Shown here: piece by piece, positions 32,268 through 60,753 of the stretch | How positions within the stretch are numbered: position 1 is the stretch's first letter | Layout: every line of letters starts with the position of its first letter | NCBI GenBank assembly: GCA_963759765.1 | Contig: CAVXAL010000002.1 | Coordinates: forward strand, 464,228-528,227 | Length of the DNA stretch: 64,000 nt | Origin: Candidatus Aminicenantes bacterium | GTDB taxonomy: Bacteria > Acidobacteriota > Aminicenantia > UBA2199 | Reading direction: 5' to 3' | Translations under genes and position numbers: made by a program | The notes under the pieces: generated by a model | Database searches by the model: none | Seen by the model: only the letters and a program-made list of their open reading frames with translations | What the model was told of the DNA's origin: nothing

Positions 32268-32300
32268 GGAGGAAATGGAAATTGCAGAGGAGTTGGCGCG

Positions 32301-33323
32301 ATGGGAGTGATTGTCACGTTTGGGGAGCTGCTCTTGCGGCTGGCTGCGCCCGGCAAAGAGATGCTGTTGCAATCGCCGCTGTTCGAGGTGTGTGTCGGGG
32401 GCGGCGAAGCCAACGTGGCCGTGGCCTTGGCCCATTGGGGTTATGAACCGCGTTACTTGAGCGTGGTGCCGGATAATGAGCTGGGGGCGGCAGCGCTGGC
32501 CGAGTTGCGCCGATTCGGGGTTGATACCGCGTCGGTGGTCAGAAAGGGCGAACGCGTCGGCCTCTATTTTGCCGAGTCGGGGGCCAATCAGCGGCCCGCC
32601 AAGGTGATTTACGACCGGGCGCACTCGGCCTTGGCCGAGGCCCAGACCGGGGCTATTGACTGGAAACGAGTATTGGCGGACGCGAGCTGGTTTCACACCA
32701 GCGGCATCACCCCTGCGGTCAGCGCCAGCGCTGCCGCGTTGACACTGGAAGCGGTGCAGGAAGCCCGGCGTCTGGGCGTCACGGTTTCGCTGGACCTCAA
32801 TTACCGGGCCAAGCTCTGGAAATACGGCAAACGCGCACCCGAGGTGATGACCAACATTGTCCGCGGGATCGATATCCTGATGGCCAATGAAGAGGACTGC
32901 CAGCGGGCGCTGGGTATTGGCGCGGCCGTGTTGGAACGAAAGATTGAACTGAAAAAATATGAAGAACTGACTCGCCAGGTGCAGGTCGCTTTCCCGCAGC
33001 TGAAAAAAATCGCCATCACCCTGAGGGAAAGCCACAGCGCCGATCACAACGACTGGTCGGCGGTGCTGCGTAGCGGCGACCGCTTCCTGGTTTCGAAGAA
33101 ATACGAAATCCGTCACATTGTCGACCGCATCGGTGCCGGCGACGCCTTTGCGGCCGGGCTGATTCACGGCCTGCTTCGCTGGCCGGACGATGCGCAGGCA
33201 TTGGAGTTTGCCGTGGCCGCTTCCTGCCTGAAGCATTCCCTGCCTGGCGATTTCAGCCGCGTCAGCGAGAAAGAAGTGCTGGACCTGCTCGCCGGGGAAG
33301 AGTCCGGGCGGGTGCGGCGCTGA
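32301..33323 (+). CDS. kdgK: 2-dehydro-3-deoxygluconokinase (PfkB family)
   Basis: The internal ATG gives MGVIVTFGELLLRLAAPG. The C-terminal motif is DRIGAGDAFAAGLIHG. Adjacent to eda. Confidence 0.8.
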   Translation: MGVIVTFGELLLRLAAPGKEMLLQSPLFEVCVGGGEANVAVALAHWGYEPRYLSVVPDNELGAAALAELRRFGVDTASVVRKGERVGLYFAESGANQRPAKVIYDRAHSALAEAQTGAIDWKRVLADASWFHTSGITPAVSASAAALTLEAVQEARRLGVTVSLDLNYRAKLWKYGKRAPEVMTNIVRGIDILMANEEDCQRALGIGAAVLERKIELKKYEELTRQVQVAFPQLKKIAITLRESHSADHNDWSAVLRSGDRFLVSKKYEIRHIVDRIGAGDAFAAGLIHGLLRWPDDAQALEFAVAASCLKHSLPGDFSRVSEKEVLDLLAGEESGRVRR

Positions 33324-35507: not shown

Positions 35508-35539
35508 ACACTGCTTCAGTTGCGGATAAAAAAAAGGGG

Positions 35540-39412: not shown

Positions 39413-40689
39413 CCTCTTTGCTCCACTTTTTGGTCAACGCCCTGTTTGTGTTTTCAGTGGTGTTCATCTGGCTGATGTTGCTCTACCAGTTTGTCTTGTG
39501 CATTGGAGGCTTTTTGTGGCACCAGCAGGCGGGGCGCGGGCAAAAAACCTCGGTTGGAAACGATTGCCTGCCCCGGGTCTCCATCCTCATTCCGGCGCAC
39601 AACGAAGAAAAGGTCATTGAGCTCGCCGTGACTCGGATGTGCGAATTGCATTATCCGAAAGACAAATTGGAAATTCTGGTCATCAATGACGGCAGCAGCG
39701 ACCGGACGGGAGAGATCCTGACGCGGCTGATGGCCGCCGATGCGCGCGTTCGGGTACTGGATGTGCCCCGGGAGCGGGGCGGCCGTGGGAAAAGCGCCGC
39801 GCTGAATCTGGCCTTGGCCCAGGCGCGATTCGAGGCCCTGGCCGTGTATGACGCCGACAACATCCCCGAAAAAGATTCCCTGTTGCTGCTGGCGCGGGCG
39901 CTGCTGAGTGATCGGCGGCTGGCCGCGGTGACGGGAAAATTCCGGGCGTACAACAAAAGCCGCAGCCTGCTCACCCGTTTGGTCAACCTGGAGTCGATCG
40001 CTTTCCAGTGGATTGTCCAGGCGGGTCGCTGGTTTTTTCTCCGTATTTCGGCCCTGCCCGGCACCAATTTTATCATCTGGAAGCGGGTGGTGGAGGAGTG
40101 CGGGGGCTGGGACGAAGCGGCGCTGACCGAAGATACCGAGCTTACCTTCCGCCTCTATGAACGGGGCTTCCGCATTCAATTCCTGCCCACGGCGACCACC
40201 TGGGAACAGGAGCCCGAGAACCTTTCCGATTGGATGCGGCAGCGCACCCGCTGGGCGAGGGGGAACAATTACATCATTGCCAAATACGGCAGAACTGTTT
40301 TTAAAAAGAAACCCACCGCCGGCCTCCTGGAGCTGTTGAACTTGTTTTATCTCTACTATTTTTTTATTTTCGCCATCCTCGTTTCCGATGTGCTGTTTCT
40401 CCTTTCCTTGATTGGCGTGGCCCATATCCGGCTTGCCGGCCCCTATGCCGAGTTATGGGGGCTGGCCTTTTTGCTTTTTCTGCTGGAGTTGCTGGTGGCA
40501 CTCTCCTTTGAAAAAGAAGACAACCTGCTCAATCTGGGAGTCGGACTGCTGGCCTATGTCACTTATACCAAGTTGTGGGTGCTGGTGGTGTTGAGGGCCC
40601 TCTATCTTGATTACGTCAAGAAGAGCTCCCGGAGTTGGAGTAAGACCGAACGGTACGAGACGGGCAAGCCGACAGGACCTTCCGTATAA
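39409..40689 (+). CDS. family-2 glycosyltransferase, processive synthase type (PgaC/IcaA/cellulose-synthase-like)
   Basis: VSILIPAHNEE...LVINDGSSDRT...AVYDADN...TEDTELTFRL...QRTRWARG (the D,D,D,QxxRW signature), flanked by TM helices. ATGA overlap with the upstream gene. Confidence 0.85.
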   Translation: MTSLLHFLVNALFVFSVVFIWLMLLYQFVLCIGGFLWHQQAGRGQKTSVGNDCLPRVSILIPAHNEEKVIELAVTRMCELHYPKDKLEILVINDGSSDRTGEILTRLMAADARVRVLDVPRERGGRGKSAALNLALAQARFEALAVYDADNIPEKDSLLLLARALLSDRRLAAVTGKFRAYNKSRSLLTRLVNLESIAFQWIVQAGRWFFLRISALPGTNFIIWKRVVEECGGWDEAALTEDTELTFRLYERGFRIQFLPTATTWEQEPENLSDWMRQRTRWARGNNYIIAKYGRTVFKKKPTAGLLELLNLFYLYYFFIFAILVSDVLFLLSLIGVAHIRLAGPYAELWGLAFLLFLLELLVALSFEKEDNLLNLGVGLLAYVTYTKLWVLVVLRALYLDYVKKSSRSWSKTERYETGKPTGPSV

Positions 40690-40707
40690 ACGTTTATTTC
40701 TTAACGC

Positions 40708-40736
40708 TTTACCCAGCCAACGGATTCGGTTATAAT
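40708..40736 (+). promoter_or_regulatory. sigma70-type promoter TTTACC-N17-TATAAT
   Basis: Read directly, 27 nt upstream of ATG 40763. Confidence 0.5.
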
Positions 40737-40762
40737 GAGTGTTCAGTCGTTGTAGGAATCCA

Positions 40763-41740
40763 ATGAAACCGAAAAGTGACCCGACTATTCTGGATGCCAT
40801 CGGCCACACGCCGCTGGTTAAACTCACGCGCATCACCGCCGCGCTCAAGTGCGAGGTGTTCGCCAAGCTGGAATTTCTGAACCCCATGGGCAGCATCAAG
40901 GACCGCATCGCCCGCTACATGATCGAGAAGGCCGAACGGGATGGCCGCCTGAAACCGGGCGGCCTGATCATTGAGAATTCCTCCGGCAACACCGCTCTGG
41001 GCCTGGCTCTGATCGCCATTCAGAAAGGCTATCGCCTGAAGGTCATTGTGCGCGACAGCATCAGTCGTGAAAAGCTGAACCAGCTCAAAGCCTTGGGCGT
41101 GGACATCCACCCGGTTGACGCCAACCTGCCGCCCGAATCCCCTGACAGCTACAACAACATCACTCCCAGGCTGGCCCGGGAAATCCCCGGCGCTTATTTT
41201 CCCGACCAGCACAACAACCGGGAAAACAACGAAGCCCATTACCGCACCACCGGTCCGGAAATCTGGAAACAGATGGCAGGCCGGATCGATTATTTTGTGG
41301 CCGGCATCGGTACCGGTGGCACCATCGGCGGGGTTGGCCGCTTTCTGAAGGAACAGGACCCGCGCATCCGGATCATCGCGGTGGATCCGGAGGGATCGGT
41401 GTTCTACGACTATTTCCATTCCGGACGCAAGGTCAAGCCCAGCCGTTATCTGCTCGAGGGGTTGGGCGACGAATTTCTTATCGGTTGCGCCGACTTGGAG
41501 GTTGTCGATGACATGATCCGGGTCAGCGACCGCGAGGCCTTTCGGGTGACCCGCGAGCTGGTTCTTCGGGAAGGAATCATGGCCGGGGGTTCCAGCGGCG
41601 CCGCCCTCTGGGGGGTTTTCAAACTGGCCGAAACCCTGAAGAAGCCGGCGCGGGTGGTGACGGTATTCCCCGACAGCGCTTCGCGCTACCTGAGCACCAT
41701 CTTCAACGACCAGTGGCTGAAAGAACGCCAGTTGCTGTAG
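40763..41740 (+). CDS. PLP-dependent cysteine synthase / cystathionine beta-synthase family enzyme
   Basis: IGHTPLVKL...KLEFLNPMGSIKDRIA (PLP lysine), ENSSGNTALGLA, GIGTGGTIGGVGRFLKE. Confidence 0.85.
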   Translation: MKPKSDPTILDAIGHTPLVKLTRITAALKCEVFAKLEFLNPMGSIKDRIARYMIEKAERDGRLKPGGLIIENSSGNTALGLALIAIQKGYRLKVIVRDSISREKLNQLKALGVDIHPVDANLPPESPDSYNNITPRLAREIPGAYFPDQHNNRENNEAHYRTTGPEIWKQMAGRIDYFVAGIGTGGTIGGVGRFLKEQDPRIRIIAVDPEGSVFYDYFHSGRKVKPSRYLLEGLGDEFLIGCADLEVVDDMIRVSDREAFRVTRELVLREGIMAGGSSGAALWGVFKLAETLKKPARVVTVFPDSASRYLSTIFNDQWLKERQLL

Positions 41741-41805
41741 TTCCGGACGCGCGCTGAACCTTTTTCCTCTGTTTTACGTATCACTTTTACTTATGGAGGA
41801 TTCTG

Positions 41806-43356
41806 ATGAAAAAGACCGCATGGGCCATTTTGATCTTGTTTGCCCTGAGTTGGCTTGCGACCGCTGCCGACACCCAGGAAATCCAACCCCTGTCGCTGGA
41901 AGATGCGATCGTCAAGGCGTTGAAAAACAATCTCGATTTGCAGATCGCCATGGCCAATCCCGACATATCCCAGCAGCTGCTCAGCAAGAGCCGGTCGCTT
42001 TTCGTCCCCCAGCTGACACTGAACTATAGACGGAACCAGACCAACCAGCCCACCACCAGCGCCATCGAAGGCGGGACTGTGGTCACCAACAAGCTGGATT
42101 CGCTGAACCTCGCCTTGTCGCAAAAAATAGCGCTGGGCGGCACGTTGCAGGTCCAATTCGCCAATTCCCGCACCTTCAACACGTCGCTTTTCTCCAGCTA
42201 CAATCCCTATTACAATTCGGGTTTAAATTTCAGCCTGACTCAGCCCTTGCTCAAGAATTTCGGGACATCCGTAACCAAATACAACATTTATGTGGCCATC
42301 AACAACGAACAGCAATCGGTCTTCGCCCTGCGCCAAAACATCATCGACCTCATTTACTCGGTGGAACAGGCGTACTGGGACCTGGTGTATGCTTACCAGA
42401 ACCTCGGTGTGCAGCAGAAGTCGGTGCAGTTGGCTCGCGACCTGCTCAAGCAGAACGAGGCGCAGGTCAGAGTTGGCGTGTCGGCGCCCATGGACATTCT
42501 CACCGCCCAGGCCGAGGTGGCCGCGCGGGAGAGCGATCTGCTCAGTGCCCAGAACACGGTTGAGATAATGGATAAAAATCTCCGCGTCATCCTGAATCTC
42601 AATGAGCTCAAAGCCAAGCTCAATCCCACGGACATGCCGATCTTCAGGGCGGTGGAAACCGACTTTAACGGCTTCCTGCTGGAAGCTCTGGACAAGCGCC
42701 CCGATATCCAGCAGGTGCGCCTGGACCTGAAAAACAAAAACCTGGGGGTCCGTTATACTCGCAACCAGCTCCTTCCCCAACTGGATCTGACCGCCCAGTA
42801 CTACACCTCGGGCATCAGCGGCGACAAGTTGATCTTCAACGGCAATCCGCTTTTCGGCGGCACCGTGATCGGCGTGATCAAGGGCGACATCGGGCAGGCG
42901 ATGAAGGACGTGTTGGCCAGCGTTTATCGCAACTACACGCTGGCGCTGCAGCTTTCGGTCCCGCTGAAAAACGACTCGGCACGCGCCGATTACGCGCAAG
43001 CGCAGTTAGCCCTCAAACAGAGTCTGCTGCAGCTGAAAAAGACAGAGAGCACCATCTTTTCCGATGTGAAGCAGATCGTCACCGACTTGGAATACAGCAA
43101 AAAGCAGGTCGAGGCCACCCGCATCTCGCGGGAGTTGCAGGAGCAGAAGCTGCAGGCCGAGCAGAAAAAGCTGGCGGTCGGCCTATCGACCAATTATTTG
43201 GTGTTGCAATACCAGCGCGATTTTGCTACCGCGCAAGTCGCCGAGCTGAACGCGATCATTATCAACAACCTGGCATTCTCGCGCTTGAGCAAGGTGCTGG
43301 GCACCACCCTGGAAAAACATCAGATCGAATTCAGCAACTTTTTACCGCAGCGATAG
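41806..43356 (+). CDS. TolC-family outer-membrane channel
   Basis: Signal peptide, then two tandem OEP repeats ([20 protein letters not shown]...; [39 protein letters not shown]...). No adjacent pump partner in the window. Confidence 0.8.
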
Positions 43357-46339: not shown

Positions 46340-46354
46340 GATTTCCTTCAAATT

Positions 46355-47792
46355 ATGACAAACCATAGCCAAACCATTGTCCTGTTAACGGTTTTTGTCC
46401 CCATTCTCGGTTCGCTGACCATCCCGCTGGCCGGCCTGATATCCAGGCGGGCCCGCTCGGTCTGGGCGGTGACCATCGGCCTGGCCACGGCCGGCTTATC
46501 GCTTCTGCTTATACCCTTTGCTCTGAGCGGCGGTGAACTGGTCTGGCGCTTGCCGATGGCCTTGGGGCTGGATTTTGTCCTGCTGGCCGACGGCCTGGCG
46601 GTATTCATGGCTGCTGTCTCCTCGTTTGTCGGTGCCCTGATCGTCATTTATTCTCTGGGTTACATCGGGCATGAGGAGAACCAAAATGAATACTACCTGA
46701 TGGTCCTGCTCTTCATCGGCGCCATGATGGGACTGGTCTTTTCGGCCAACCTGATTTTCCTCTACCTCTTCTGGGAGATCGCCGCCATCGCCTGCTGGCG
46801 GTTGATCGGTTTTTACCGCAAACCGGAACACGTGATCAAGGCCGACAAGGCTTTTCTGGTTACCTTCTTCGGTGCTGTGGTCATGCTTCTCGGCTTCATC
46901 CAGATCTACGGTCAGACCAATACCTTCGATATCACCGCCATGCGCGGCGTGGTCGTGCCCGGAACCGCTGTGCTGCTGATCCTGGTTGGCATGTTTTCCA
47001 AGTCGGCCACCGCCCCGCTGCACACCTGGCTTCCCGACGCTGGCGTGGCACCAACCACGGTCACGGCCCTGCTCCATGCAGCGGTGCTGGTTAAAATCGG
47101 CGTCTACGCCTACGCCAGGCTCTTCTGCTACACCTTCAAGCTGCCGGCGGGCTGGACCAGCGCCATCCCCATCCTGGCCGTGCTCTCCAGCTTGATTGCG
47201 GCCGGCGCCGCAACGGTGGAAACTGATTTCAAGCGCATTCTGGCCTATTCCACGGTCAGTCAGATCGGCTACATTTTTCTCGGCTTTGCCGCACTCAACC
47301 CCATCGGCATTGCCGGGTCGGCCCTGTTCATTCTGATGCACGGCCTGGCCAAGGCCGGGCTCTTCCTCTGCGCCGGCATTGTCATCCATGCCACTCACCA
47401 GCGTGACATCCGTCAGACTGGGAGGGTTGCTGAGGAGCATGCCGCTGACCGCCCTGGCATTTCTTTTTTGCGCCTTTTCGGTCATCGGCATCCCGCCGTT
47501 TGGTGGTTTTTTCTCCAAGCTGATGGTCATCGTCGGCGCGGTCAAGGCCGGCCAGATCGGGGTGGCGGCCCTGGCCCTGTTTGTCGCCGTGCTGACCATG
47601 TTCTACATGTTCCGCATGTTCAGCGCTGTGTTTCTGGGCGAGGCCAAGACCCCGGCCCGCGAAGGAACCGCTGGCATGGTGGCCGTGGTGGTCATTTTGG
47701 CGATGCTCTCCCTGCTGGCCGGCCTGTTGGTCCGTTACCCGTTAAAATTGGTGGATGTGGCCACTGCTGAAATCCTGAGGTGGATGCCATGA
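46355..47792 (+). pseudogene. MrpD/NuoN-like antiporter subunit, one frame break
   Basis: Proton-conducting membrane transporter motifs (LFWEIAAIACW, SATAPLHTWLPDA, AYSTVSQIGYI). The frames join as ...HATHQRDIRQ|LGGLLRSMPLTALAF if A47417 is ignored. Confidence 0.75.
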
Positions 47793-49651
47793 ACCCCGCG
47801 ATGCTTTTGCTGCCGATTGCCCTGCCTCTGCTACTGGCCCTTTTCTCGTTTGCCCTGCCCGGCCGGGTGCGGCTGGTGCGCGAGCTGGTTTCGGTGCTGG
47901 GCGCTGGCGCGTTGGTCTATATGGGCTTTCTCTTTTTCCGGTCGGGCGAGCTGCTCTATTCTCTGCCCTGGGTCGGTCCGGGCATGGAGTTTGAGCTTCG
48001 GCTCTACCATTTCAGCCAATTCATCTTCTTGGCGCTGACCGGATTTGTTTTTCTGATCACCCTTTATTCCACCGTCAAGATGGCCGCTCATCCGCGCGTC
48101 CGCGAATATTACGGCTATCTTTTCCTGACCGCCGCATTTTCTGCGGGCGCGGTGCTGGCCAATAATTTCCTGCCACTGGTCTTCTTCTGGGAAGGGCTGC
48201 TGCTGACGCTCTACGCGCTCATCACCCTGGGCGGGGCTCAGTCCCACCGCACGGCGGTCAAGAGTTTCATCATCAGCGGTTTCTGCGATTTTTCCATGAT
48301 CCTGGGCATAGCCATTATCTGGCACCTGACCGGAACGTTGCGTCTCTCCCAGGTGTCGCTGGTCCCCCAGGGCCTGGCCGCCGTCAGTTTTGTCCTGATG
48401 ATGATCGGCGCCATCGGCAAGGCCGGGGCCATGCCCTTCCATACCTGGATTCCGGACGCGGCCGTTGACGCGCCGGTCACCGTGATGGCGTACATCCCTG
48501 CTTCGCTGGAGAAGCTGCTGGGCATTTACCTGTTGGCCCGCATTTCTCTCGATTTCTTCAAACTCGAGAAAAACAGCGCCCTGGCCCTGACACTGATGAT
48601 CATCGGTGCTCTGACCATTGTGCTGGCCGTGTTCATGGCCCTGGTTCAGAAGGACTTCAAGCGTTTGCTTTCCTACCACGCGGTTAGCCAGGTCGGCTAC
48701 ATGATCTTGGGGATCGGCACCGCCGTGCCCATCGGCATTGCCGGCGGCATTTTCCACATGATCAACCATGCCATGTACAAGTGCGGTCTGTTCCTGTCGG
48801 CCGGCTCGGTGGAGCTGCGCGCCGGCACGACCGAATTGAAGAAGCTGGGCGGGCTCTGGCGCCAGATGCCGCTGACCGCCTTAAGTTTCGCGATCTGCGC
48901 GGCCGCCATTTCAGGTGTCTGGCCGCTGAACGGCTTCGTGTCCAAAGAGATGGTCTTTCATGGCTCGTATGAGACCGGTTACCCGATATTTACCATTGCC
49001 GCCTGGGTGGGCGCCATTTTCACCTTCGCTTCTTTCCTCAAGGCGGGCCATTCGGTCTTTCTGGGGCCGCGCGCCACGCCAGCGGTTCCGATCAAAGAGA
49101 ACAAGAGCCCGATGACTATCGCCATGCTGACGTTGGCGGGTCTCTGCGTCACTTTCGGCGTCTTCAACCGGCTGCCCCTCAAGCTCTTTATCGAACCGAT
49201 CCTCAAAGGCCATACCCACGGGGAGGCGGTCAATCTCAGCGCCCATGCCCTGGATCTGTTCAACCCGATCGCCCTTATTTCCCTGGGCTGTCTGGTCATT
49301 GCCCTGATCATTCACCTCTACGGTTTCAACAAAAACCAGAAGAAAGCCTATCTGGCGTCTGAGCCTATCCATAACCTGCCACTGTTCAAAACGATCTACC
49401 GCTGGGCCGATGCCCGGGTCTTTGATCTTTATGAACAGGGCATCAAGTTTTTGCAGCTGCTGGCCCGTTTGCTCTTCCGCTTCGTTGACCGCCCCATCGA
49501 TTTCGTCTACGAGAAGATCGTGGTCGGCGTGGGCCGCACCTTCACCGGTATCCTACAGGCGGCGCACAACGGGTTTTACGCCAATTATCTCGCCTGGTCG
49601 GTCGCCGGTTTGGTGGTGCTCGTCTGGATCATCCGCCTGCTGCTCAGATAG
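47780..49651 (+). CDS. NuoL/MrpA-like antiporter subunit
   Basis: 623 aa. FFWEGLLLTLYALI, GAMPFHTWIPDAAVDAPVTVMAYI, SYHAVSQVGYMILGIG. Confidence 0.8.
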   Translation: MDAMNPAMLLLPIALPLLLALFSFALPGRVRLVRELVSVLGAGALVYMGFLFFRSGELLYSLPWVGPGMEFELRLYHFSQFIFLALTGFVFLITLYSTVKMAAHPRVREYYGYLFLTAAFSAGAVLANNFLPLVFFWEGLLLTLYALITLGGAQSHRTAVKSFIISGFCDFSMILGIAIIWHLTGTLRLSQVSLVPQGLAAVSFVLMMIGAIGKAGAMPFHTWIPDAAVDAPVTVMAYIPASLEKLLGIYLLARISLDFFKLEKNSALALTLMIIGALTIVLAVFMALVQKDFKRLLSYHAVSQVGYMILGIGTAVPIGIAGGIFHMINHAMYKCGLFLSAGSVELRAGTTELKKLGGLWRQMPLTALSFAICAAAISGVWPLNGFVSKEMVFHGSYETGYPIFTIAAWVGAIFTFASFLKAGHSVFLGPRATPAVPIKENKSPMTIAMLTLAGLCVTFGVFNRLPLKLFIEPILKGHTHGEAVNLSAHALDLFNPIALISLGCLVIALIIHLYGFNKNQKKAYLASEPIHNLPLFKTIYRWADARVFDLYEQGIKFLQLLARLLFRFVDRPIDFVYEKIVVGVGRTFTGILQAAHNGFYANYLAWSVAGLVVLVWIIRLLLR

Positions 49652-49660
49652 GGAGGCCCC

Positions 49661-51121
49661 ATGATTTTTCTCTTCATCATCATTCCCCTGGTCGTGGCCA
49701 GCGTCATGCCCCTGCTGGGCAGAATATCCAAGCGCGTCCTGCCCGACTTAATCGGCAACCTGACCCTGCTTTTCCTGCTGGTCTATTCGGCCTTTATCGC
49801 CCGGGGGCTGATTGCCGGCGGCGGCATCATCCAACAAGCGGTCTGGCTGGGCACACCGCTCAACATCACCCTGCTGCTCGACGGGTTCAGCCTGCTGATG
49901 CTGCTGACCATTTCTCTGGTCAGCCTGGCGGTGGGCCTCTATTCAATCGACTACATGGAACACTACGGTGCCAAGGCCAACTACTACGCCCTGCTGCTGC
50001 TGATGATCGCCGGCATGAACGGCCTGGTGCTGACCAACGACCTGTTCAATGTCTACCTGTTTTTGGAGGTGGCGGCCGTGGCCTCCTACGCCCTGGTGGC
50101 CTTCGGGCTGGGACATGACGAGCTGGAAGCCTCGTTCAAATACCTGATGCTTTCGGCCGTGGCCTCGGCTTTCATCCTGCTGAGCATCGCGTTGATATTC
50201 GGCCTGGTGGGCAGCCTGAACTTCAAGGATGTGGCCGGCGGCCTAGCAACGCTGAACGTCAAATACCTGGTGGGATTATGCAGCGGCTTGTTCCTGATGG
50301 GATTCGGCCTGAAGGCGGCTCTCGTTCCCTTCCATGCCTGGCTGCCCGACGCCCACCCTTCGGCGCCGGCGCCCATCTCGGCGATGCTGTCCGGCGTGCT
50401 GATTAAAGTGTCGGGTATTTATGCCCTGACCCGGATTATACTGAATGTCTTCGGGCTGACTCCGGCCTTGAGCACCGTGCTGATGGGGCTGGGCGTGGTT
50501 TCCATTTTGGTCGGGGCGCTGATCGCCCTGGGCCAAAAAGACATGAAACGGATGCTGGCCTATTCCTCGATCAGCCAGGTCGGCTACGTGGTGCTGGGTA
50601 TCGGGCTGGGCACGCCGCTGGGCATCCTGGGCGGGCTTTTCCACCTGTTCAACCACGCTATATTCAAGGCTCTCCTCTTTTTGAATTCCGGTTCCGTGCA
50701 GCAGGCAACCGGCACCCGTTTGCTCGACCGGATGGGCGGTCTGGCCAAGCGCATGCCCCTGACCGCCGCCACCAGCGCCGTGGGCTCGCTGGCGATTGCA
50801 GGCGTGCCGCCGCTCAACGGCTTCTGGAGCAAACTGATCATCATCATTGCCCTGATCCAGGCCAAGCAGGGCGTGCTGGCGGTTCTGGCCGTCCTGGGTT
50901 CGGTGATCACCCTCTGGTATTACCTGATCCTGCAGCGACGCGCTTTTTTCGGCCAGTTGAACGAGGCCTGGCGTTCGGTCAAGGAGGCGCCCTTCTGGAT
51001 GTCGCTGGCCACCCTGATGCTGGCCCTGCTCTGCATCGCCATCGGCCTGCTTTACCCCCTGCTCATCCGTTCCTGGCTGAAGCCGGCCGCGGATGTGCTG
51101 GCCGGGGTTTTTGGATTTTAG
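49661..51121 (+). CDS. MrpD/NuoM-like antiporter subunit
   Basis: 486 aa. FLEVAAVASYALV, ALVPFHAWLPDAHPSAPAPISAMLSG, AYSSISQVGYVVLGIG. Confidence 0.8.
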   Translation: MIFLFIIIPLVVASVMPLLGRISKRVLPDLIGNLTLLFLLVYSAFIARGLIAGGGIIQQAVWLGTPLNITLLLDGFSLLMLLTISLVSLAVGLYSIDYMEHYGAKANYYALLLLMIAGMNGLVLTNDLFNVYLFLEVAAVASYALVAFGLGHDELEASFKYLMLSAVASAFILLSIALIFGLVGSLNFKDVAGGLATLNVKYLVGLCSGLFLMGFGLKAALVPFHAWLPDAHPSAPAPISAMLSGVLIKVSGIYALTRIILNVFGLTPALSTVLMGLGVVSILVGALIALGQKDMKRMLAYSSISQVGYVVLGIGLGTPLGILGGLFHLFNHAIFKALLFLNSGSVQQATGTRLLDRMGGLAKRMPLTAATSAVGSLAIAGVPPLNGFWSKLIIIIALIQAKQGVLAVLAVLGSVITLWYYLILQRRAFFGQLNEAWRSVKEAPFWMSLATLMLALLCIAIGLLYPLLIRSWLKPAADVLAGVFGF

Positions 51122-51130
51122 GAGACGCGC

Positions 51131-51604
51131 ATGCACCTCTTTCTGCTCATCGCCTTGATCGTCTTTTGCGGCCTGGCCGTGCTGCTGCGCGACCTGCTAA
51201 AGGCCGCCATCTGTCTGGCCGTGGCCAGCATCTTCCTGGCTCTGATTTTTTTCCGGCTGAACGGGCCCTATGTCGGGGTGTTTGAGATTTCCGTGGTGGC
51301 TGGATTGATCACCGTGCTGTTCATCACCGCCATCACCCTGACCCGCGCCGAGGGCGGCGTGCACGAGGCCCGCTGGCCGCTCTGGCTTTTTCCCCTGTTC
51401 TTTGTGGCGCTGTTGCTGGCCGATGTAGCAGTGATGCACAAACTCTTCAGCCAGCTGCCCGCCTTGAACCAGTCGACCGCCGGCACATTCGGCGAGGTGC
51501 TCTGGAACCGGCGTACCTTTGACCTGATCGGCCAGGTCGGCGTCATTTTTGCCGGCGTGTTCGCTGTCCTGGCCCTGTTCCGCAAGGGGGGGACGCATGA
51601 GTAA
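51131..51604 (+). CDS. MbhD/MnhB-like membrane subunit
   Basis: 157 aa with four predicted TM helices. Position and pattern (AAICLAVASIFLALIFFRLNGPYVGVFEISVVAGLITVLF) fit the DUF4040/MnhB type. Confidence 0.6.
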   Translation: MHLFLLIALIVFCGLAVLLRDLLKAAICLAVASIFLALIFFRLNGPYVGVFEISVVAGLITVLFITAITLTRAEGGVHEARWPLWLFPLFFVALLLADVAVMHKLFSQLPALNQSTAGTFGEVLWNRRTFDLIGQVGVIFAGVFAVLALFRKGGTHE

Positions 51605-51905
51605 TTTCTGGTTGTTGCATATGGGGTTCGTGGTGCTGCTCGTGGCCGTCGGCCTTTATTGCCTGCTGACCATGAAGAACATGCTCAAGCTGCTTATCGG
51701 TGTGGAAATCATCGTCAAGGGAGTCACCCTGGCCCTGCTGGCCACCGGTTTCGACCGCCAGAACGTCGCGGTCGCGCAAGCTCTGGCCATCACCGTGATC
51801 GTCGTGGAAGTCAGCGTGGTGGCCACGGCCCTGGCCATCGTCATCAACATCTACCGGCACACCCACAGCCTGGATGTGCGCAAACTGACCAAACTGAAGG
51901 GATAA
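51597..51905 (+). CDS. MnhC/NuoK-like membrane subunit
   Basis: MSNFWLLHMGFVVLLVAVGLYCLLTMKNMLKLLIGVEIIVKGVTLALL...AQALAITVIVVEVSVVATALAIV. Confidence 0.75.
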   Translation: MSNFWLLHMGFVVLLVAVGLYCLLTMKNMLKLLIGVEIIVKGVTLALLATGFDRQNVAVAQALAITVIVVEVSVVATALAIVINIYRHTHSLDVRKLTKLKG

Positions 51906-51908
51906 GCC

Positions 51909-52244
51909 ATGAAACCATTGACCGATATACTCCTGTCGCCGCCCGTGGCATTCATCGTTTTCCTGCTGCTTTTCTTTGTGGTCTACCTGCTGGCAGGCCG
52001 AATGGCCCCCAAGGCCCAGGCAGTGGGCGGAAAATTGAAAACCTACGCCTGCGGTGAGGATATCCCCGGCTACAAGATGCAGTTCGGCTACCGGCTCTTT
52101 TTCTTTATCGCCCTGTTTTTTACTATGATGCACGTGGCCGCCCTGGTGGTGGCCACCCTGCCCAAGGGCCCGGTGGTCTACTTCGGCATCTTCTACCTGG
52201 GCATGATCTTCCTCTCCGTGCTGGCGTTGATCACCAAGGATTAA
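51909..52244 (+). CDS. small membrane subunit (NuoA/MbhI-like)
   Basis: 111 aa with three predicted TM helices and YACGEDIP. Assigned by its position between the antiporter and hydrogenase modules. Confidence 0.5.
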   Translation: MKPLTDILLSPPVAFIVFLLLFFVVYLLAGRMAPKAQAVGGKLKTYACGEDIPGYKMQFGYRLFFFIALFFTMMHVAALVVATLPKGPVVYFGIFYLGMIFLSVLALITKD

Positions 52245-52245
52245 C

Positions 52246-52665
52246 ATGCTGCAACGATTGGTACACTGGTCGCGCGTCAAATCCCCTGGGTCCTGCACCT
52301 GAACACCGGCGCCTGCAACGCCTGCGACATTGAGATTCTGGCGGCGTTGATGCCCCGCTTCGACCTCGAGCGTTTCGGCATCCTGCTCAAAGGCACTCCC
52401 CGCCACGCCGATGTCATCCTCTGCACCGGTCCGATCACCCGCCAGAACCGGGACCGGGTCGTGCGCATCTGCGAGCAGGTCCCCGACCCCAAGTTCGTCG
52501 TGGCGGTCGGCGCCTGCGCCATGTCCGGCTGCGTCTACCGCGGTGCCTACAACATCATGGGCGGCATCGACCAGGTGCTGCCGGTGCAACGCCTATATTC
52601 CCGGCTGCCCCATCCGCCCCGATGCCTTGATTGACGGGGTGGTCAAGCTCCTCAAATCCATCTGA
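52246..52665 (+). pseudogene. hydrogenase small subunit, NuoB/MbhJ-like, two frame breaks
   Basis: Re-threaded: MLQRLVHWSRVKSP|WVLHLNTGACNACDIEILAALMPRFDLERFG...GTPRHADVILCTGPITRQ...VVAVGACAMSG...GGIDQVLPV|.YIPGCPIRPDALIDGVVKLLKSI. Breaks at 52283-52286 (CCCC) and about 52587. Confidence 0.75.
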
Positions 52666-52669
52666 GAGG

Positions 52670-53146
52670 ATGTCGATGAACGTGGAAGAGATCATCGCCA
52701 AAACCAAGGAACACCTGCAAGCCAAGGCGTTGGAGATCACGAATCCGGCGCCGCGGCGGATTTTCGTCACCGTTGACCGCAGCGACCTGGTGGAAACGGT
52801 CCGCTTCCTGCGCGACCGGCTGGGGTTTTACCATCTGGCCACAATTACCGGCGTGGACCTGGGCGACCAGTTCGAGCTGCTTTACCACCTGGCCAACAGC
52901 CAGGCCAACCTGAACCTGCGCCTGCGCACGCCGCGCAGCGCCCCCCGGGTGCCCAGCATCTGCGCCGTCATTCCCGGCGCCATTCTGTACGAACGAGAGC
53001 TGCAGGACATGTTCGGCATCGTGGTCGAGAACATACCCGACCCCCGGCCTCTGCTGCTGGCCGATGACTGGCCCCAGGGCCAGTATCCCTTGCGCAAGGA
53101 CTGGAAGTGGGAGCGGCCGCCCGAAGTCATCCCCGGAGGCAAATAA
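52670..53146 (+). CDS. NuoC/MbhK-like subunit
   Basis: LATITGVDLGDQFELLYHL...ILYERELQDMFGIVVENIPDPRPLLLADDWP. Confidence 0.8.
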   Translation: MSMNVEEIIAKTKEHLQAKALEITNPAPRRIFVTVDRSDLVETVRFLRDRLGFYHLATITGVDLGDQFELLYHLANSQANLNLRLRTPRSAPRVPSICAVIPGAILYERELQDMFGIVVENIPDPRPLLLADDWPQGQYPLRKDWKWERPPEVIPGGK

Positions 53147-54352
53147 TGGAATTCAAGATAGCGATAGGCCCCCAGCATCCGGCCCTGCATGAACCAATCA
53201 GCCTGCGCATGACGCTGGACGGCGAGGTGATCAAGGACGCCGATCTGAGACTGGGATACAACCACCGCGGTCTGGAGAAACTGGCCGAAGACCGCACCTA
53301 TGTGCAGAACCTCTACTTGACCGAGCGCATTTGCGGTATCTGTTCGTTCTCCCACCAGACCTGTTACACCCAGGGGGTTGAGAAGCTGATGGAGATCGAG
53401 CCGGCGCGGCGCGGCCTCTACATCCGCACCCTGGTCTGCGAATTGGAACGGGTGCACAGTCACCTGCTCTGGCTGGGCGTGGCCGGGCAGGAAGCCGGCT
53501 TTGAGTCTTTTTTCATGTACACCTGGCGCGACCGCGAAGTGGTGATGGACATTCTGGAGATGATCTCCGGCAACCGCGTCCATTACTCGATGAACATTTT
53601 CGGCGGTGTGCGCCGCGACATCGACGAGCTGCAGAAGAAAAAGATCCTCGATTCCCTGGGCCTGCTCAGAAAGCGTACCGAATATTATTTCAATATCGGT
53701 GCCAGCGAGCCGACCTTTGTGGCCCGCATCTCCGGAGTGGGTAAACTTCCCAGGGAGAAGGCCATCGCCCTGTGTGCCGTGGGCCCGACCCTGCGTGCCT
53801 CCGGCGTGCCCATGGACGTGCGCAAAGACGACCCTTATGCTGTGTATGGCGAAGTGCCCTTTGAAGTCTGCACCGCCGACAGCGGTGACGTGCTGGGCCG
53901 CGTGGTGGTTCGGGTCAAGGAGCTGCTGCAGTCCTACAACATCATCGAGTTTTTGCTCAAGAACCTGCCCGAAGGCCCGGTCAAAGTCAAGTTTCCACGC
54001 AAGGTCAAGCCCAACGAGGTCTTCAGCCGCTACGAGGCACCGCGCGGCGAGAACTGCCACTACATCAAGAGCAACGGTTCGGATAAGCCGGAGCGGCTGA
54101 AGGTGCGGGCGCCGACGCTGGGCAATTATCCGGCGACCATTGAAATGCTCAAGAACGGGTTCATCGCCGATATCCCGTTGATCTTCGCCGCCATCGATCC
54201 CTGCATTTGCTGCGCCGAACGACTGGTGCAAGTGGATAACCCGCGCCAGGGCACGAGCCGCGTCCTGACGCTTCAGCGAGCTGCGGAACATGGCGAACGA
54301 TTTCTACAAACACATCGACCTCAAACACAGGGAATGCGTATGGCCATTTTGA
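53146..54352 (+). pseudogene. group-4 [NiFe]-hydrogenase large subunit (MbhL/EchE-like), one C-terminal frame break
   Basis: Both Ni-Fe ligand motifs are present: RICGICSFSH and DPCICCAER. After ...RVLTLQ the sensible continuation ELRNMANDFYKHIDLKHRECVWPF-stop is in the +1 frame (break at 54274-54278). That stop, at 54350-54352, overlaps the next ATG at 54340. Confidence 0.8.
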
Positions 54353-55319
54353 AGCCGATTCTTTATATCCTGGTGTATCCCGGGTTTGCTATTCCTGCTG
54401 CTTTACTCCACCTTCTGCGAGTGGTTGGACCGCAAGCTGTATGCCCGCATGCAGAACCGCTCGGGCCGCTGCATACCGGCCGCTCCGGCATCCTGCAGCC
54501 GGTGGCCGATTTTATCAAGCTGTTCGCCAAGGAAGACATCGTGCCTGAACTGGCCGACAAAGCGGATGTTCACCGCCCTGCCCGTGTTGGCCCTGGCCAT
54601 CGTCTGCACCGCCGCCATCTACCTGCCGCTCTGGCATTACTCGCCGGCGCTGGTCTCCTTCAACTCCTTCTCCGGGAGACCTGATCGTTGTGGCTTACCT
54701 GCTCGGACTGCCAACGCTGATCTTGTTCTTGGCCGGCTGGCATTCGACCAATCTCTTTTCGACCATCGGCAGCGTGCGCGTGCTGACCATGCTATTCGGC
54801 TACGAGGTGCCCCTGTTGCTGGCGCTGCTCAGCCCGGCCATCATCGCCGACTCCTGGCGGCTGGCCAAAATCGCTCAGCTTTTACCAGGCTAGGCCCCTG
54901 CTGCTGCTGCCCAATCTCCTGGGTTTTTTTATCGCGCTGATCGCCCTGCAGGCCAAGCTGGAGCGCGTGCCCTTCGACATCCCCCATGCCGAGACCGAGA
55001 GTGGTGGGCGGGGCCATTCACCGAATATTCGGGCAAGAAGCTGGCTTTTTTCCGGCTGCTGCGGCGACATCGAGATGGTCGTGGGCAGCGGCCTGATCGC
55101 CGCCGTGTTTCATGGGCGGGTTCCCCGGCGGGCTGCTCTGGGGTCTGCTGCAATTTGTGGTCAAGACCTTGGTCGTCGTCTTCCTGCTGGCCGCCATGCG
55201 CGCCGCCATTTCCCGCATCCGCATCGACCAGATGATCGACTTTTCCTGGCGTTGTCTGGCGCCGCTGGCCGTGCTGCAGCTTCTGATCGCCATTCATCAT
55301 CAAAGGGATGTTACCATGA
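54340..55319 (+). pseudogene. NuoH/MbhM-like membrane subunit, about ten frame breaks
   Basis: The conserved sequence can only be read by hopping frames: MAILKPILYILVYPG|LLFLLLYSTFCEWLDRKLYARMQNRSG|PLHTGRSGILQPVADFIKLFAKEDIVPELADK|RMFTALPVLALAIVCTAAIYLPLWHYSPALVSFNSFSG|DLIVVAYLLGLPTLILFLAGWHSTNLFSTIGSVRVLTMLFGYEVPLLLALLSPAIIADSWRLAKIAQL|YQARPLLLLPNLLGFFIALIALQAKLERVPFDIPHAETE|VVGG|PFTEYSGKKLAFFRLLR|DIEMVVGSGLIAAVF|MGGFPGGLLWGLLQFVVKTLVVVFLLAAMRAAISRIRIDQMIDFSWRCLAPLAVLQLLIA|FIIKGMLP-stop. Confidence 0.7.
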
Positions 55320-55680
55320 GCAACAAGCCTCGCCGCCTTTTTTACCCGAGATTCTGCGCCACCTGTTCAAGAAACCGGCCACCGTCCGCTACCCTTTCGA
55401 AAAGGATGCCGGTAGCCCAAGGATTTTCGGGGCAATCTGGTATTCAATCCGCCCAAGTGCATCGGCTGCATGATCTGCGTCAACGATTGCCCGGCCGAGG
55501 CCATCGACATCATCCGCGTCTCGGAAACGGAGAAAAAATTCAAGATGATCCTGCACAACGACCGCTGCATCCACTGCGCCCAGTGCGTCGATTCATGCCC
55601 GACCAAGACCTATCGAGATGAACGCCGATTTCGAGCTGGCCGCCTTCAGCCGCCACGACCTGAAGATCGAATACAAATAG
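55316..55680 (+). pseudogene. 2x[4Fe-4S] NuoI/MbhN-like subunit, three frame breaks
   Basis: Re-threaded: MSNKPRRLF|LPEILRHLFKKPATVRYPFEKDAGS|PKDFRGNLVFNPPKCIGCMICVNDCPAEAIDIIRVSETEKKFKMILHNDRCIHCAQCVDSCPTKT|IEMNADFELAAFSRHDLKIEYK-stop. Breaks at T6 55338-55343, CCC 55416-55418 and T55611. Confidence 0.7.
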
Positions 55681-55727
55681 GACCTATACCATTTTCCCGC
55701 TTGACGCCAAAATCCAATAAGAATAGT

Positions 55728-56297
55728 GTGGGCAAAAAGGCCGGGCGCAAAGTCATTCCGGCAGAATGGCAAGATCGTTTGCGGCGCTGGCTGCGGGGCT
55801 GCCGCCGGCTGCTCGTCCTGGGTGTCGGCCAGCGGCTGAAGGGAGACGACGGCGTTGGCGTGTATGTGGCCCGGCTGCTGCAGCGTCGGGTGCGCCAGCG
55901 AGGTTCGGCGAAGCTGGCGATTATCGCTGCCGGCGAAACCCCGGAAAATTACACGGCCCGCATCCGCCGGCTGCAGCCCAGCCATGTGCTGATTGTCGAC
56001 GCGGCTGCCCTAGGCCGGGCACCGGGGGCCATGGGTATCGTCGCTTGGCGGCACATCGCCAACGAGGACATTTCCACCCACCGCCTGCCTCTTTCTCTTT
56101 TGGCCCGCTTTCTGGAGCAGACCCTTCCCTGCAAAGTGCTGCTGCTGGCCATCGAACCCAAATCATTTTCGCTTCCGCAACGATTGTCGGCCGAGGTCAA
56201 AAAATCGGCTCTGCAACTGGCCCGCTTCCTGGCCGACGTCGGGCAAGGCAACAAAATGCAGTGTTCCAGGGGAAAATTTCCAACGTCCTCCGTCTAA
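55728..56297 (+). CDS. hydrogenase maturation endopeptidase (HycI/HyaD family)
   Basis: A GTG start is proposed. LLVLGVGQRLKGDDGVGVYVARLL...LIVDAAALGRAPG...STHRLPLSLL fits the HycI family. In the ORF track it is fused to the mbhN-like tail (ORF 55470-56297). Confidence 0.65.
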   Translation: MGKKAGRKVIPAEWQDRLRRWLRGCRRLLVLGVGQRLKGDDGVGVYVARLLQRRVRQRGSAKLAIIAAGETPENYTARIRRLQPSHVLIVDAAALGRAPGAMGIVAWRHIANEDISTHRLPLSLLARFLEQTLPCKVLLLAIEPKSFSLPQRLSAEVKKSALQLARFLADVGQGNKMQCSRGKFPTSSV

Positions 56298-59690: not shown

Positions 59691-60753
59691 TCAGGCCAGC
59701 AGCCGGATGCGGGTAAAGAGGTAGTCGAGAGGTTCCTCCTGCAGCACCAGCCGGCAATAGGGGGTTCCTGCCAGCGCTTCGGGTGGGGACCCCCGGCTTT
59801 CGAAGTGGCGCGGTTCCCGCTCGCTGTCGAACCAGTATACCAGGCGGATGCTGCCCGCTTCGAGCTCGAGGGCCGTGATCCCTTTCTTGCCGATGGCGCA
59901 GCCGGAGTTGAACAGGCAGGGAACCAGCGGCTCGCTGGCGTAGAGCGAACCGCTGTCGGCCGCTCCTTCCTTGCGGTGAACCAGGTCCTGGAGCTCTTCT
60001 CGGGCCTGTTTTATTTGTTTTTCCAGAATGGCCTTTTCCTGTCCGTCGGCCCGGGGATAGAGGCGGCAGAGTTGTTCGATGTGAAATTTCAAACTGTCCC
60101 GCTTGGATAATGACTCGAAGAGCGGCCGGTGGGTGTGGCCGATCAGGGCGATGATTTTGCGCTGGCGGGCGAATTCGTAAATTTTTTTCTCGATGGCGAA
60201 TTTCTTGCTGCTGCTGCGGGCCACGCTGTAGTTGCGAATGTGCAGGGGCTGCGCCAGAAAACGGAGCGAGAGGGCGATCAGGAAGCGGAACAGTTCCAGG
60301 AAGAACGAGGCCTGGTAGCCGTGCAGGATAAAAATGGTCTGCCCGTGAAAACCGAATTTCAACGTTTCCTGCACCGGGAAATGGCGCGGCCTGTTTCTGG
60401 GCAGATGCAGCTCGTAATCGTGGTTACCGAAAATTTTGATTAGCGCGTGCCGCTGCTTAAAGGCGTCAAAGAGGTGATAAATTTTCTTTCCGGGATCTGG
60501 CTATGGCCTTGCGGCTGAAGCGCAGGAGCTCCTCCACGTCGCCGTTGAGGACGAGGCCGAAGCCATGGCGGAGATAATGTTTCTCTAGGGCGTTAGCAAA
60601 CAGGTCGGCGTTGATCCGGAAATCGTCTCCGCCCTTGCCGTTGCCCATGTGCAAATCGCTGACGATCACCCATTTTTCTCTTTCAGAAAGGGGAACCGTT
60701 GGCGCCGTTTCGTACAACGAGGCTAACCGCTTCTGGATCTTTTTGCTGCCCAT
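59691..60753 (-). pseudogene. calcineurin-like metallophosphoesterase, one frame break
   Basis: Motifs VSDLHMGNG, LNGDVEEL, FGNHDYE and IGHTHRP are split between ORFs 60466-60831 and 59691-60374. The middle segment DPGKKIYHLFDAFKQRHALIKIFGNHDYEL lies in the second ORF's frame but has no start codon. The break is in 60487-60500. Confidence 0.65.

Follow-up and report, generated by a model that had tools for sequence, protein, structure and literature searches.

The stretch of DNA analysed here (the window, 64,000 nucleotides) harbors on its forward strand a row of genes that resemble the subunits of group 4 [NiFe]-hydrogenases. Three antiporter-like genes are followed by small membrane subunits, by NuoB-, NuoC-, NuoD-, NuoH- and NuoI-like genes (J to N), and by a gene for a HycI-like protease.

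46355..47786, + strand: antiporter-like subunit 1 (MrpD/MbhH/NuoL-M-N type; Pfam Proton_antipo_M, Proton_antipo_N)
47780..49651, + strand: antiporter-like subunit 2, unbroken (Pfam PF00361; break census)
49661..51121, + strand: antiporter-like subunit 3, unbroken (Pfam PF00361)
51131..51604, + strand: MbhD/NuoJ-like membrane subunit, unbroken (Pfam MbhD, Oxidored_q3)
51597..51905, + strand: NuoK-like (Oxidored_q2) membrane subunit, unbroken (Pfam PF00420)
51909..52244, + strand: small membrane subunit of 111 aa (MbhI position), unbroken (exact protein in Logan)
52246..52665, + strand: J, NuoB-like small subunit (MbhJ), 2 breaks (NuoB subfamily NF005012)
52676..53146, + strand: K, NuoC-like subunit (MbhK), unbroken though inside the affected tract
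53146..54349, + strand: L, NuoD-like [NiFe] large subunit (MbhL), 1 break near the C-terminus
54340..55319, + strand: M, NuoH-like membrane subunit (MbhM), 10 breaks
55316..55680, + strand: N, NuoI-like 2x[4Fe-4S] subunit (MbhN), 4-5 breaks
55701..56297, + strand: HycI-like hydrogenase maturation protease, unbroken (Pfam HycI)

The placement in group 4 follows from the NuoB-, NuoC-, NuoH- and NuoI-like proteins that are encoded together, as detected by Pfam and NCBIfam in J, K, M and N after re-threading across the breaks. Re-threaded J (139 aa) matches NF005012 with 144.9 bits at a cut-off of 116. The large subunit L, 400 aa after re-threading, is NuoD-like, matches Pfam Complex1_49kDa and NiFeSe_Hases, and carries both Ni-Fe ligand motifs of the group (N-terminal RxCGxCxxxH and C-terminal DPCxxCxxR). 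The product of 53146-54349 retains these as RICGICSFSH (L1) and DPCICCAER (L2), and N has eight cysteines in two CxxCxxCxxxCP motifs; the preliminary description of this DNA had already reported the ligand motifs and all eight NuoI-type cysteines as intact. That description had also recognized NuoB/D/H/I-like genes of an energy-converting hydrogenase, an assignment borne out by the Pfam and NCBIfam matches and by the match to chain L of PDB 6CFW. The Mrp-linked, Mbh-type character of the cluster is evident from three PF00361 proteins together with MbhD/Oxidored_q3 and Oxidored_q2 proteins at 46355-51905. Antiporter-like subunit 3 lies in a single frame with 77-80% identity to two related loci (L003 and L061). 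The MbhD/NuoJ-like protein (51131..51604) has an identical copy in the Logan assembly (sources NCBI, Logan and ENA), and a 102-aa gene called on Logan contig L081 corresponds to the NuoK-like subunit. The start ATG of N overlaps the stop of M (ATGA), and the start codon of the protease is ambiguous between 55701, 55728 and 55779. Judged by homology, the complex would be predicted to evolve H2 from ferredoxin and to couple this reaction to ion translocation.

The best solved match of L is the membrane-bound hydrogenase of Pyrococcus furiosus (PDB 6CFW; group 4d, Mrp-linked; 6cfw_L, E = 2e-86). In both systems, NuoB-, NuoC-, NuoD-, NuoH- and NuoI-like subunits come, in that order, after an Mrp-antiporter-like membrane arm; the two Ni-Fe ligand motifs are present, as are the Fe-S cysteines. 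In contrast with the P. furiosus system, the window cluster is bacterial (Aminicenantes), and its catalytic genes are preceded by those for three large antiporter-like subunits and followed immediately by the gene for a HycI-like protease. Next among the solved relatives of L comes formate hydrogenlyase/hydrogenase-3 of Escherichia coli (PDB 7Z0S, E = 4e-80), which shares a HycI-type maturation protease. However, the window encodes no formate dehydrogenase or HycB-type partner, and instead of HycC and HycD only, its Mrp-like membrane arm includes three antiporter subunits. Orthologous clusters are found in other Aminicenantes, for example Candidatus Saccharicenans subterraneus BY38 (locus L019) and loci L001, L003 and L061. 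These clusters are collinear with the window from the first antiporter-like to the NuoI-like gene and show 75-95% amino-acid identity for J, L, M and N. They differ in that their orthologues are single-frame throughout and in that the flanks beyond 46.3-55.7 kb are not syntenic.

Frame breaks in the catalytic genes

Identification of the breaks relied on protein-to-DNA alignment with frameshifts allowed, using orthologues from L019, L001, L003 and L061. A homology-free Viterbi model of codon usage, trained on the sequence itself, served as a second caller and agrees with the alignment. Orthologues from 15 related Aminicenantes genomes formed the comparison set. Between 52282 and 55619, 17-18 one-base frame breaks interrupt the NuoB-, NuoD-, NuoH- and NuoI-like genes.

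47414-47419, + strand: isolated 1-nt insertion in antiporter-like subunit 1 (frame change by homology)
52282..52287, + strand: break 1, J, one base missing in or beside a C run (AAATC-CCCTGG)
52586..52587, + strand: break 2, J, 1-nt insertion GTG[C]AAC; L001 has GTC here
54268..54274, + strand: break 3, L, 1-nt insertion ACG[C]TTC
54377..54382, + strand: break 4, M, insertion TAT[C]CCG (at 54379)
54459..54462, + strand: break 5, M, base missing, CGC TC_ GGG (at 54461); relatives have ATC or ATG
54559..54565, + strand: break 6, M, insertion GAC[A]AAG
54671..54676, + strand: break 7, M, insertion TTC[T]CCG
54876..54884, + strand: break 8, M, insertion GCT[C]AGC
55000..55002, + strand: break 9, M, insertion GAG[A]GTG
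55010..55016, + strand: break 10, M, insertion GGC[G]GGG
55061..55064, + strand: break 11, M, insertion CTG[C]GGC (at 55062)
55107..55113, + strand: break 12, M, insertion GTG[T]TTC (at 55108)
55292..55295, + strand: break 13, M, insertion ATT[C]ATC (at 55295)
55325..55343, + strand: break 14 (or 14 and 15), start of N
55404..55408, + strand: N, insertion GAT[G]CCG
55414..55417, + strand: N, insertion GTA[G]CCC; L001 has GTG
55610..55619, + strand: last break, N, insertion TAT[C]GAG (at 55614)

The total is either 17 (14 insertions and 3 deletions) or 18 (16 insertions and 2 deletions). The start of N can be read as two C insertions (~55328 and ~55335, giving MSNKLAPFLPE) or as a single deletion within or ahead of the T6 run. 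Both the frameshift-aware alignment and the Viterbi model recovered every position listed in the preliminary description to within ~6 nt, so the breaks themselves stand, but its count of 16 (12 insertions and 4 deletions) does not; the numbers differ because, in frame arithmetic, two nearby insertions are equivalent to one deletion. N harbors 4-5 breaks rather than the three first described, among them two G insertions 7-10 nt apart (55405-08 and 55415). The last break in N joins the mid-N frame to the downstream protease, which accounts for the 275-aa N-protease fusion in the source annotation.

The breaks are concentrated in a small part of the operon. While 3.4 kb contain 17 of the 18 breaks of the 9.3-kb syntenic operon (binomial p = 5e-7), the neighboring 5.9 kb of the same operon contain one, and the clustering is not chance. 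The contrast with intact neighbors drawn earlier is correct: the open reading frames at 13528-18468 and 35495-39412 run without a break, and the three antiporter-like genes share the single break at 47414-19.

The spectrum of lesions is narrow. Each event involves exactly one base, and 14-16 insertions face 2-3 deletions (p = 0.006 against 1:1). The inserted bases are mixed (C7, G3, A2, T2). About half of the breaks had been placed in homopolymers, a share that falls to about a third, as only 4 of the 14 insertions lengthen one and the other 10 do not. In 12 of the 14 the added base could replace the adjoining third-codon base synonymously, compared with 37-60% in simulations of random insertion (p = 0.0002-0.04); this enrichment is modest, and its strength varies with the choice of null model. 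Relatives carry the alternative base in several of these cases.

In mutation-accumulation and pseudogene studies, neutral decay yields about ten substitutions per indel and is characterized by a deletion bias, by varied indel sizes, and by one-nucleotide indels that fall mostly in homopolymers. The indels of J, L, M and N do not follow this spectrum, and the re-threaded genes are free of nonsense codons and of indels longer than one base. At the 494 columns invariant in the 15 orthologues they show 6 mismatches, plus one deleted codon; 6 of 494 falls inside the range that intact relatives give in a leave-one-out comparison, hence there is no excess of substitutions at conserved sites. Identity to relatives is 92-95% for J (93-95% to its nearest relatives), 84-86% for L, 82-84% for M (323 aa, free of stops) and 79-87% for N. 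None of the broken genes is worse in this respect than unbroken K, which is unusually divergent (59-63%).

An independent assembly and a second haplotype

Three Logan contigs from sequencing run ERR10755944 are 100% identical to the window along stretches of 3572 bp, 4097 bp and ~1590 bp (9.3 kb in total). Over these 9.3 kb outside the tract the window shows no error relative to Logan, which rules out poor quality of the assembly as a whole as the cause; a local cause is assumed. The last 330 bp of contig L081 contain 7 substitutions and 1 gap relative to the window (Fisher p = 2e-12).

52151..52479: left end of the second-haplotype tract, after 1.59 kb of perfect identity

The first substitution, at 52151, falls within the gene for the 111-aa small membrane subunit. 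Of the three residues specific to Logan, two (I41 and Q47) also occur as variants in relatives; the second allele is therefore genuine, not noise, and it begins where the breaks begin. The gap in the alignment is break 1 itself: the Logan contig reads AAGTCTCCCTGG at this position and its frame is open, so the independent assembly restores the frame at the sole break that it covers. In none of the other assemblies was a contig spanning 52.5-56.3 kb found, and independent sequence covers break 1 only. As the Logan contig represents a different haplotype, it shows the sample to contain an intact allele, which does not make the allele of the window intact. Only the 842-kb source contig (NCBI/ENA) contains the broken L, the fusion of N with the protease, and the truncated form of the antiporter subunit. 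Another split gene, at ~30085, is identical in a Logan contig; the population therefore carries at least one frame disruption that is present in reads.

Origin of the frame breaks

The preliminary description had left two alternatives, a locally poor consensus (low coverage, strain mixture or miscalls) or a very recent inactivation of the hydrogenase. The evidence favors the former, specifically in its strain-mixture form, and weighs against the latter. With a probability of about 0.88, the genes constitute an ordinary, intact-looking Mrp/Mbh-type group 4 [NiFe]-hydrogenase operon of an Aminicenantes (Acidobacteriota) population, and the 17-18 breaks are consensus errors in a ~3.5-kb tract (~52.15-55.7 kb) for which at least two haplotypes ~2% apart exist. 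This verdict draws on the lesion spectrum, the absence of decay, the open frame at break 1, the second haplotype, and the same signature elsewhere. The source assembly was probably built from long reads only. Reads of both haplotypes, very few reads of the assembled one, or both, would have been merged by polishing into a single consensus. Where sites vary, mostly at third codon positions, this consensus would have retained an extra base, in many cases probably because both alleles were written side by side (allele doubling), and would occasionally have lost one. Breaks 2-18 would then be absent from the reads.

The signature elsewhere comes from related genomes. Microflora Danica genomes were assembled from Nanopore reads only, with metaFlye and one round of Medaka (PMC12313526). 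Two loci with Microflora Danica sample names, L066 and L057, contain one-base insertions and deletions in ratios of 44 to 1 over 13.6 kb and 17 to 0 over 14.8 kb, respectively. Within J-N, L004 and L032 show a single insertion apiece. All four are Nanopore-only Microflora Danica loci and display the same insertion-dominated pattern of one-nucleotide indels in conserved coding sequence as the window. Of the other 13 loci tested, 11 have no breaks in J-N, and L006 and L064 have one deletion each; short-read relatives show zero or one one-base indel. The inserted bases of the window are less dominated by C and G than those of L066 and L057, and the process behind the errors may therefore differ. 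Indels left in Nanopore consensus sequences cause false frameshifts below ~40-fold coverage, and one-base indels that split conserved genes, as in the window, are the target of the IDEEL test (PMC9262707). That description stresses homopolymers and low coverage throughout a genome, whereas the breaks of the window lie mostly outside homopolymers, occupy only 3.4 kb of a contig that is clean elsewhere, and begin with the second haplotype.

Some of these observations would also suit a real and very recent pseudogenization, in which 17-18 one-base indels disrupted the catalytic module of the assembled strain and a second strain living alongside it kept the module intact. The breaks are strongly local, elsewhere the window and the independent assembly agree without exception, and two haplotypes exist from 52151 on. 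The split gene at ~30085 is present in both assemblies, and breaks 2-18 lie outside independent coverage. Such an event is nevertheless improbable in light of the unchanged invariant columns and missing stop codons, an indel spectrum of one-base events (~5:1 in favor of insertions and mostly outside homopolymers) that is unlike neutral decay, and the absence of break 1 from the sole independent sequence. Moreover, other long-read-only genomes show the same pattern across whole loci.

A mixed consensus could also have arisen by collapse of two paralogous modules, the second being a ~98% identical chromosomal copy, or by a chimeric join. Two metagenome-assembled genomes of the clade have two large-subunit loci each, DAHVOV (L005 and L011) and JBGOYP (L067 and L071), and the divergent tract corresponds to just the catalytic genes. 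These paired loci, however, may reflect strain duplication within bins, and the window holds no second copy in its 64 kb. The Logan contig also continues without interruption from 1.59 kb of identical, unique upstream genes into the divergent tract, which is more easily explained by an allele of this locus than by a copy with other flanks. Collapse, which is slightly less probable again than pseudogenization, is in any case a variant of the artefact reading with the same practical conclusion. Restoration of the frame by programmed ribosomal frameshifting or transcriptional slippage has nothing in its favor beyond the conservation of every inter-break segment. It would require 17-18 sites, some only 7-10 nt apart, acting in both directions without a shared slippery motif, although the orthologues in 15 relatives are single-frame. 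The missing motif and the intact orthologues effectively refute it.

Implications for annotation and for hydrogen metabolism

In the public record, the large subunit of this locus is annotated as truncated or fused, N as a fusion with the protease, and NuoH as fragments; metabolic reconstructions would hence treat the hydrogenase as missing or as a pseudogene. The related public loci L066 and L057 hold dozens of the same false breaks. That the breaks of the window begin with the second haplotype and that the extra bases adjoin third-codon positions suggests that errors concentrate in loci varying between strains. If so, apparent pseudogenes in genomes from long-read metagenomes would be biased toward strain-variable genes.

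Pseudogenization, if true, would point to an ongoing loss of the energy-converting hydrogenase in a natural population, by an unusual mutational process that favors insertions and produces indels only. As consensus errors, the breaks carry no physiological message, and a loss of H2 metabolism should not be concluded from them.

The hydrogenase operon and its frame breaks

The operon encodes a Mrp/Mbh-type group-4 [NiFe]-hydrogenase with the components listed here.

46.3-56.3 kb, + strand: Mrp/Mbh-type group-4 [NiFe]-hydrogenase operon
Within it: three antiporter-like proteins (PF00361)
Within it: an MbhD/NuoJ-like protein, a NuoK-like protein and a small 111-aa membrane protein
Within it: NuoB-like (J), NuoC-like (K), NuoD-like (L), NuoH-like (M) and NuoI-like (N) subunits
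Within it: a HycI-like maturation protease

The large subunit L carries both the RICGICSFSH and the DPCICCAER motifs, and among solved structures it is closest to 6CFW chain L, from the membrane-bound hydrogenase of Pyrococcus furiosus (E = 2e-86). Among 80 related loci that were fetched, nearly all from MAGs of Aminicenantes or Acidobacteriota, the nearest are L001-L007 and L061, with 86-88% identity in L. As a hydrogenase cluster, the operon is unremarkable and belongs to a known kind. The records L061, L002 and L006 are titled Patescibacteria group, Chrysiogenales and Clostridia, yet they hold an Aminicenantes-type hydrogenase cluster with the same gene order and 86-88% amino-acid identity; these bins are probably mislabelled or contaminated.

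Frame breaks were located with a purpose-written protein-to-DNA aligner that tolerates one-base frameshifts, using as references Candidatus Saccharicenans subterraneus BY38 (L019, genes read by eye) and the closer Aminicenantes relatives L001, L003 and L061. GC-rich DNA such as that of L003 contains long alternative ORFs. The preliminary description had reported sixteen one-base breaks in J, L, M and N, and the aligner recovered those in J (2), L (1) and M (10) to within ~6 nt. For N the count changes: this gene carries a pair of G insertions at 55405-08 and 55415, separated by 7-10 nt, and a C insertion at 55614. The start of N is also broken; a pair of C insertions, at about 55328 and 55335, fits best and yields MSNKLAPFLPE where relatives have KIAPFLPE, and the alternative is one deletion. 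The break set is confirmed with a slightly corrected total of 17 (14 insertions, 3 deletions) or 18 (16 insertions, 2 deletions). Trained solely on the long ORFs of the window, a codon-usage Viterbi model changes frame at the same sites.

The homology-based census covered 46.3-55.7 kb, the flanks being non-syntenic with every fetched relative; codon-usage Viterbi and Pfam domain splits were used for the remainder of the window. Within the syntenic operon (46349-55677), 17 of 18 breaks fall in 3.4 of 9.3 kb (p = 5e-7). The first antiporter-like gene harbors an isolated one-base insertion at 47414-47419, 4.9 kb upstream of the cluster and outside a homopolymer (CGT[C]AGA or CAG[A]CTG). Programmed frameshifting was ruled out, as the break sites have no common motif. 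The insertion at 55614 joins the mid-N frame to the HycI-like protease gene (window 55470-56297) and accounts for the 275-aa ferredoxin-protease 'fusion' of the public annotation (P0243), which does not exist as a real protein.

Independent sequence and the question of decay

Three Logan contigs of run ERR10755944 were located by exact-protein look-ups.

L082: window 38405-41976, 100% identity
L083: window 28231-32327, 100% identity
L081: window 50558-52479, identical over ~1590 bp, then 7 substitutions and 1 gap in the final 330 bp

The concentration of differences in the tail of L081 is significant (Fisher p = 2e-12). The gap coincides with break 1 in J (52282-52287), at which AAATC-CCCTGG in the window stands against AAGTCTCCCTGG in Logan; the Logan sequence leaves J in frame. 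Three J residues differ between Logan and the window. Because two of the Logan residues, I41 and Q47, are variants known in relatives, the tail, which starts at ~52151, 130 nt ahead of the first break, is on sequence comparison a genuine second haplotype. Both haplotypes of the population deviate at J residue 76 (window 52471-52473): all 15 relatives have Y, the window C (TGC) and the Logan allele W (TGG). Outside the tract of ~52.15-55.7 kb that holds nearly all the breaks, the window and the Logan contigs agree at every position over 9.3 kb, which rules out a generally noisy assembly.

The broken products (a 512-aa L, the 275-aa N-protease fusion and a 471-aa truncated antiporter subunit) are known from the source contig alone, unlike the intact small neighbour proteins, which are present in Logan as well. 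Exact-protein look-ups returned no record for the second and third antiporter subunits, for K from either of two start codons or for the downstream VWA-like gene. In homology searches with re-threaded M, K and the HycI-like protein, no near-identical protein appeared beyond the source's own, the next best matches being at 84%, 71% and 57%, respectively. No independent contig spanning 52.5-56.3 kb was found, and the Logan comparison reaches break 1 only.

Neutral decay that fixes 17 indels is expected to fix about a hundred or more substitutions as well, and to show a deletion bias, mixed indel sizes and one-base events chiefly in homopolymers. In the hydrogenase genes all events are of one base, insertions are in excess (p = 0.006 versus 1:1), and a homopolymer run is extended by just 4 of the 14 insertions. 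The re-threaded genes, read with the frame restored at the breaks, contained no in-frame stops. Across J, L, M and N, the window deviates at 6 of 494 columns that are invariant in 15 orthologues, plus one deleted codon; this is within the range seen for intact relatives when each is left out in turn. Identity to the nearest relatives is 92-95% for J, 84-86% for L, 82-84% for M and 79-87% for N, and just 59-63% for the unbroken K. K (52676-53146) is also the fastest-evolving subunit among the relatives (64-77%), and its value in the window compares with 79-95% for the flanking J, L, M and N.

The same aligner was run on relatives, setting loci with Microflora Danica sample names and Flye-style contig names against 13 others. 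Insertion-type breaks in the hydrogenase cluster occur in the former (16 in L066, 4 in L057, and 1 each in L004 and L032), whereas 11 of the 13 others have no breaks and two (L006 and L064) have one deletion each. In L066 and L057 the breaks extend beyond the hydrogenase throughout the whole 20-kb loci, with 44 insertions and 1 deletion over 13.6 kb of aligned coding sequence in L066 (MFD10007.bin.2.27), and 17 insertions and 0 deletions over 14.8 kb in L057 (MFD00905.bin.2.121). The insertions in these two loci are mainly G or C beside a third-codon position, and most genes are falsely fragmented. Nanopore data alone underlie the Microflora Danica long-read MAGs, which were assembled with metaFlye and given a single Medaka round (PMC12313526), and in such long-read assemblies leftover consensus indels break genes below ~40-fold coverage (PMC9262707). 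The shared error signature suggests that the source assembly of the window is of the same kind.

Other frame disruptions and features of the window

Several further features were recorded outside the hydrogenase operon.

1919-3283: intact DDE_Tnp_1_4 transposase
4485-5815, + strand: overlapping same-strand ORFs, codon-model frame switch ~5253
6072-7484, - strand: WG-repeat protein
9490-11355, + strand: WG-repeat protein
18560-21776, - strand: GH106 alpha-L-rhamnosidase ORF (741 aa; Pfam E = 5e-195), then a 463-aa ORF in another frame
29505-30820, - strand: Fe-S oxidoreductase (GlpC/LutA/HdrD-like; Fer4 + 2xCCG) in two overlapping ORFs, frame change near 30085
~60497, - strand: overlapping same-strand ORFs, codon-model frame switch

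In the Fe-S oxidoreductase, the frame change near 30085 cuts the first CCG domain at position 51 of 85 (Pfam) at a site without a homopolymer. L083 is base-for-base identical over the split, and the gene called there gives the same truncated protein of 327 aa. Since L083 is 100% identical at ~30085, this disruption is present in reads, in contrast to the hydrogenase breaks. The 463-aa ORF that follows GH106 contains a GH2-N-like sugar-binding domain, and the codon model shifts frame at ~19648 in the +1 (insertion) direction; on sequence grounds this is probably another isolated frame break. The codon model marks ~5253 and ~60497 as further candidate isolated breaks. No Pfam domain is present in the ORFs 4485-5432, 4997-5815 and 59691-60374. 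The composition of window 1-12500 is uneven (43-48% G+C at 1-2 kb and 6-9 kb versus 55-66% elsewhere), and a codon model trained on the remaining sequence of the window detects little coding signal in this region. Neither Rfam nor tRNA scanning of the window gave matches.

Origin of the breaks

In 12 of the 14 insertions, the added base could stand at the adjacent third-codon position without changing the amino acid. Examples relative to L001 include GTG[C]AAC with GTC, ACG[C]TTC with ACC, TAT[C]CCG with TAC, and GTA[G]CCC with GVG-type GTG. When simulated random insertions are passed through the same aligner, the share is 37-60%, varying with the assumed base composition (p = 0.0002-0.04, dependent on the null model), and the observed insertions lie in homopolymer contexts less often than the simulated ones. 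These synonymous alternatives fit, and modestly favor, the idea that the consensus writes both alleles of a polymorphic site side by side. The C/G-dominated insertion spectrum of L066 is unlike the transition-rich spectrum of polymorphism, and the C/G-rich spectra of L066 and L057 suggest that a compositional error bias also contributes.

On the simplest reading, the catalytic module is a strain-variable tract where polishing combined reads of two haplotypes ~2% apart, had few reads of the assembled haplotype to draw on, or both. The preliminary description had left two readings, a locally poor consensus or a very recent inactivation of the hydrogenase. The former is supported in the form of a strain mixture by the lesion spectrum, the lack of decay and the second haplotype; the same spectrum and lack of decay leave inactivation unsupported. 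A variant of the artefact, in which two paralogous modules have collapsed, is in keeping with two MAGs of the clade that give two loci each, but the Logan contig passes from unique upstream genes directly into the divergent tract, which an allele fits better. A truly shattered hydrogenase allele in one strain would agree with the local nature of the breaks, with the existence of two haplotypes and with another split gene, the Fe-S oxidoreductase, that is identical in Logan; these points are outweighed by the lesion spectrum and the lack of decay, making such an allele very improbable.

The breaks are unfit as the basis for any claim on the physiology of the organism. They serve only as a caution that long-read metagenome genomes can show false pseudogenes where loci vary between strains.
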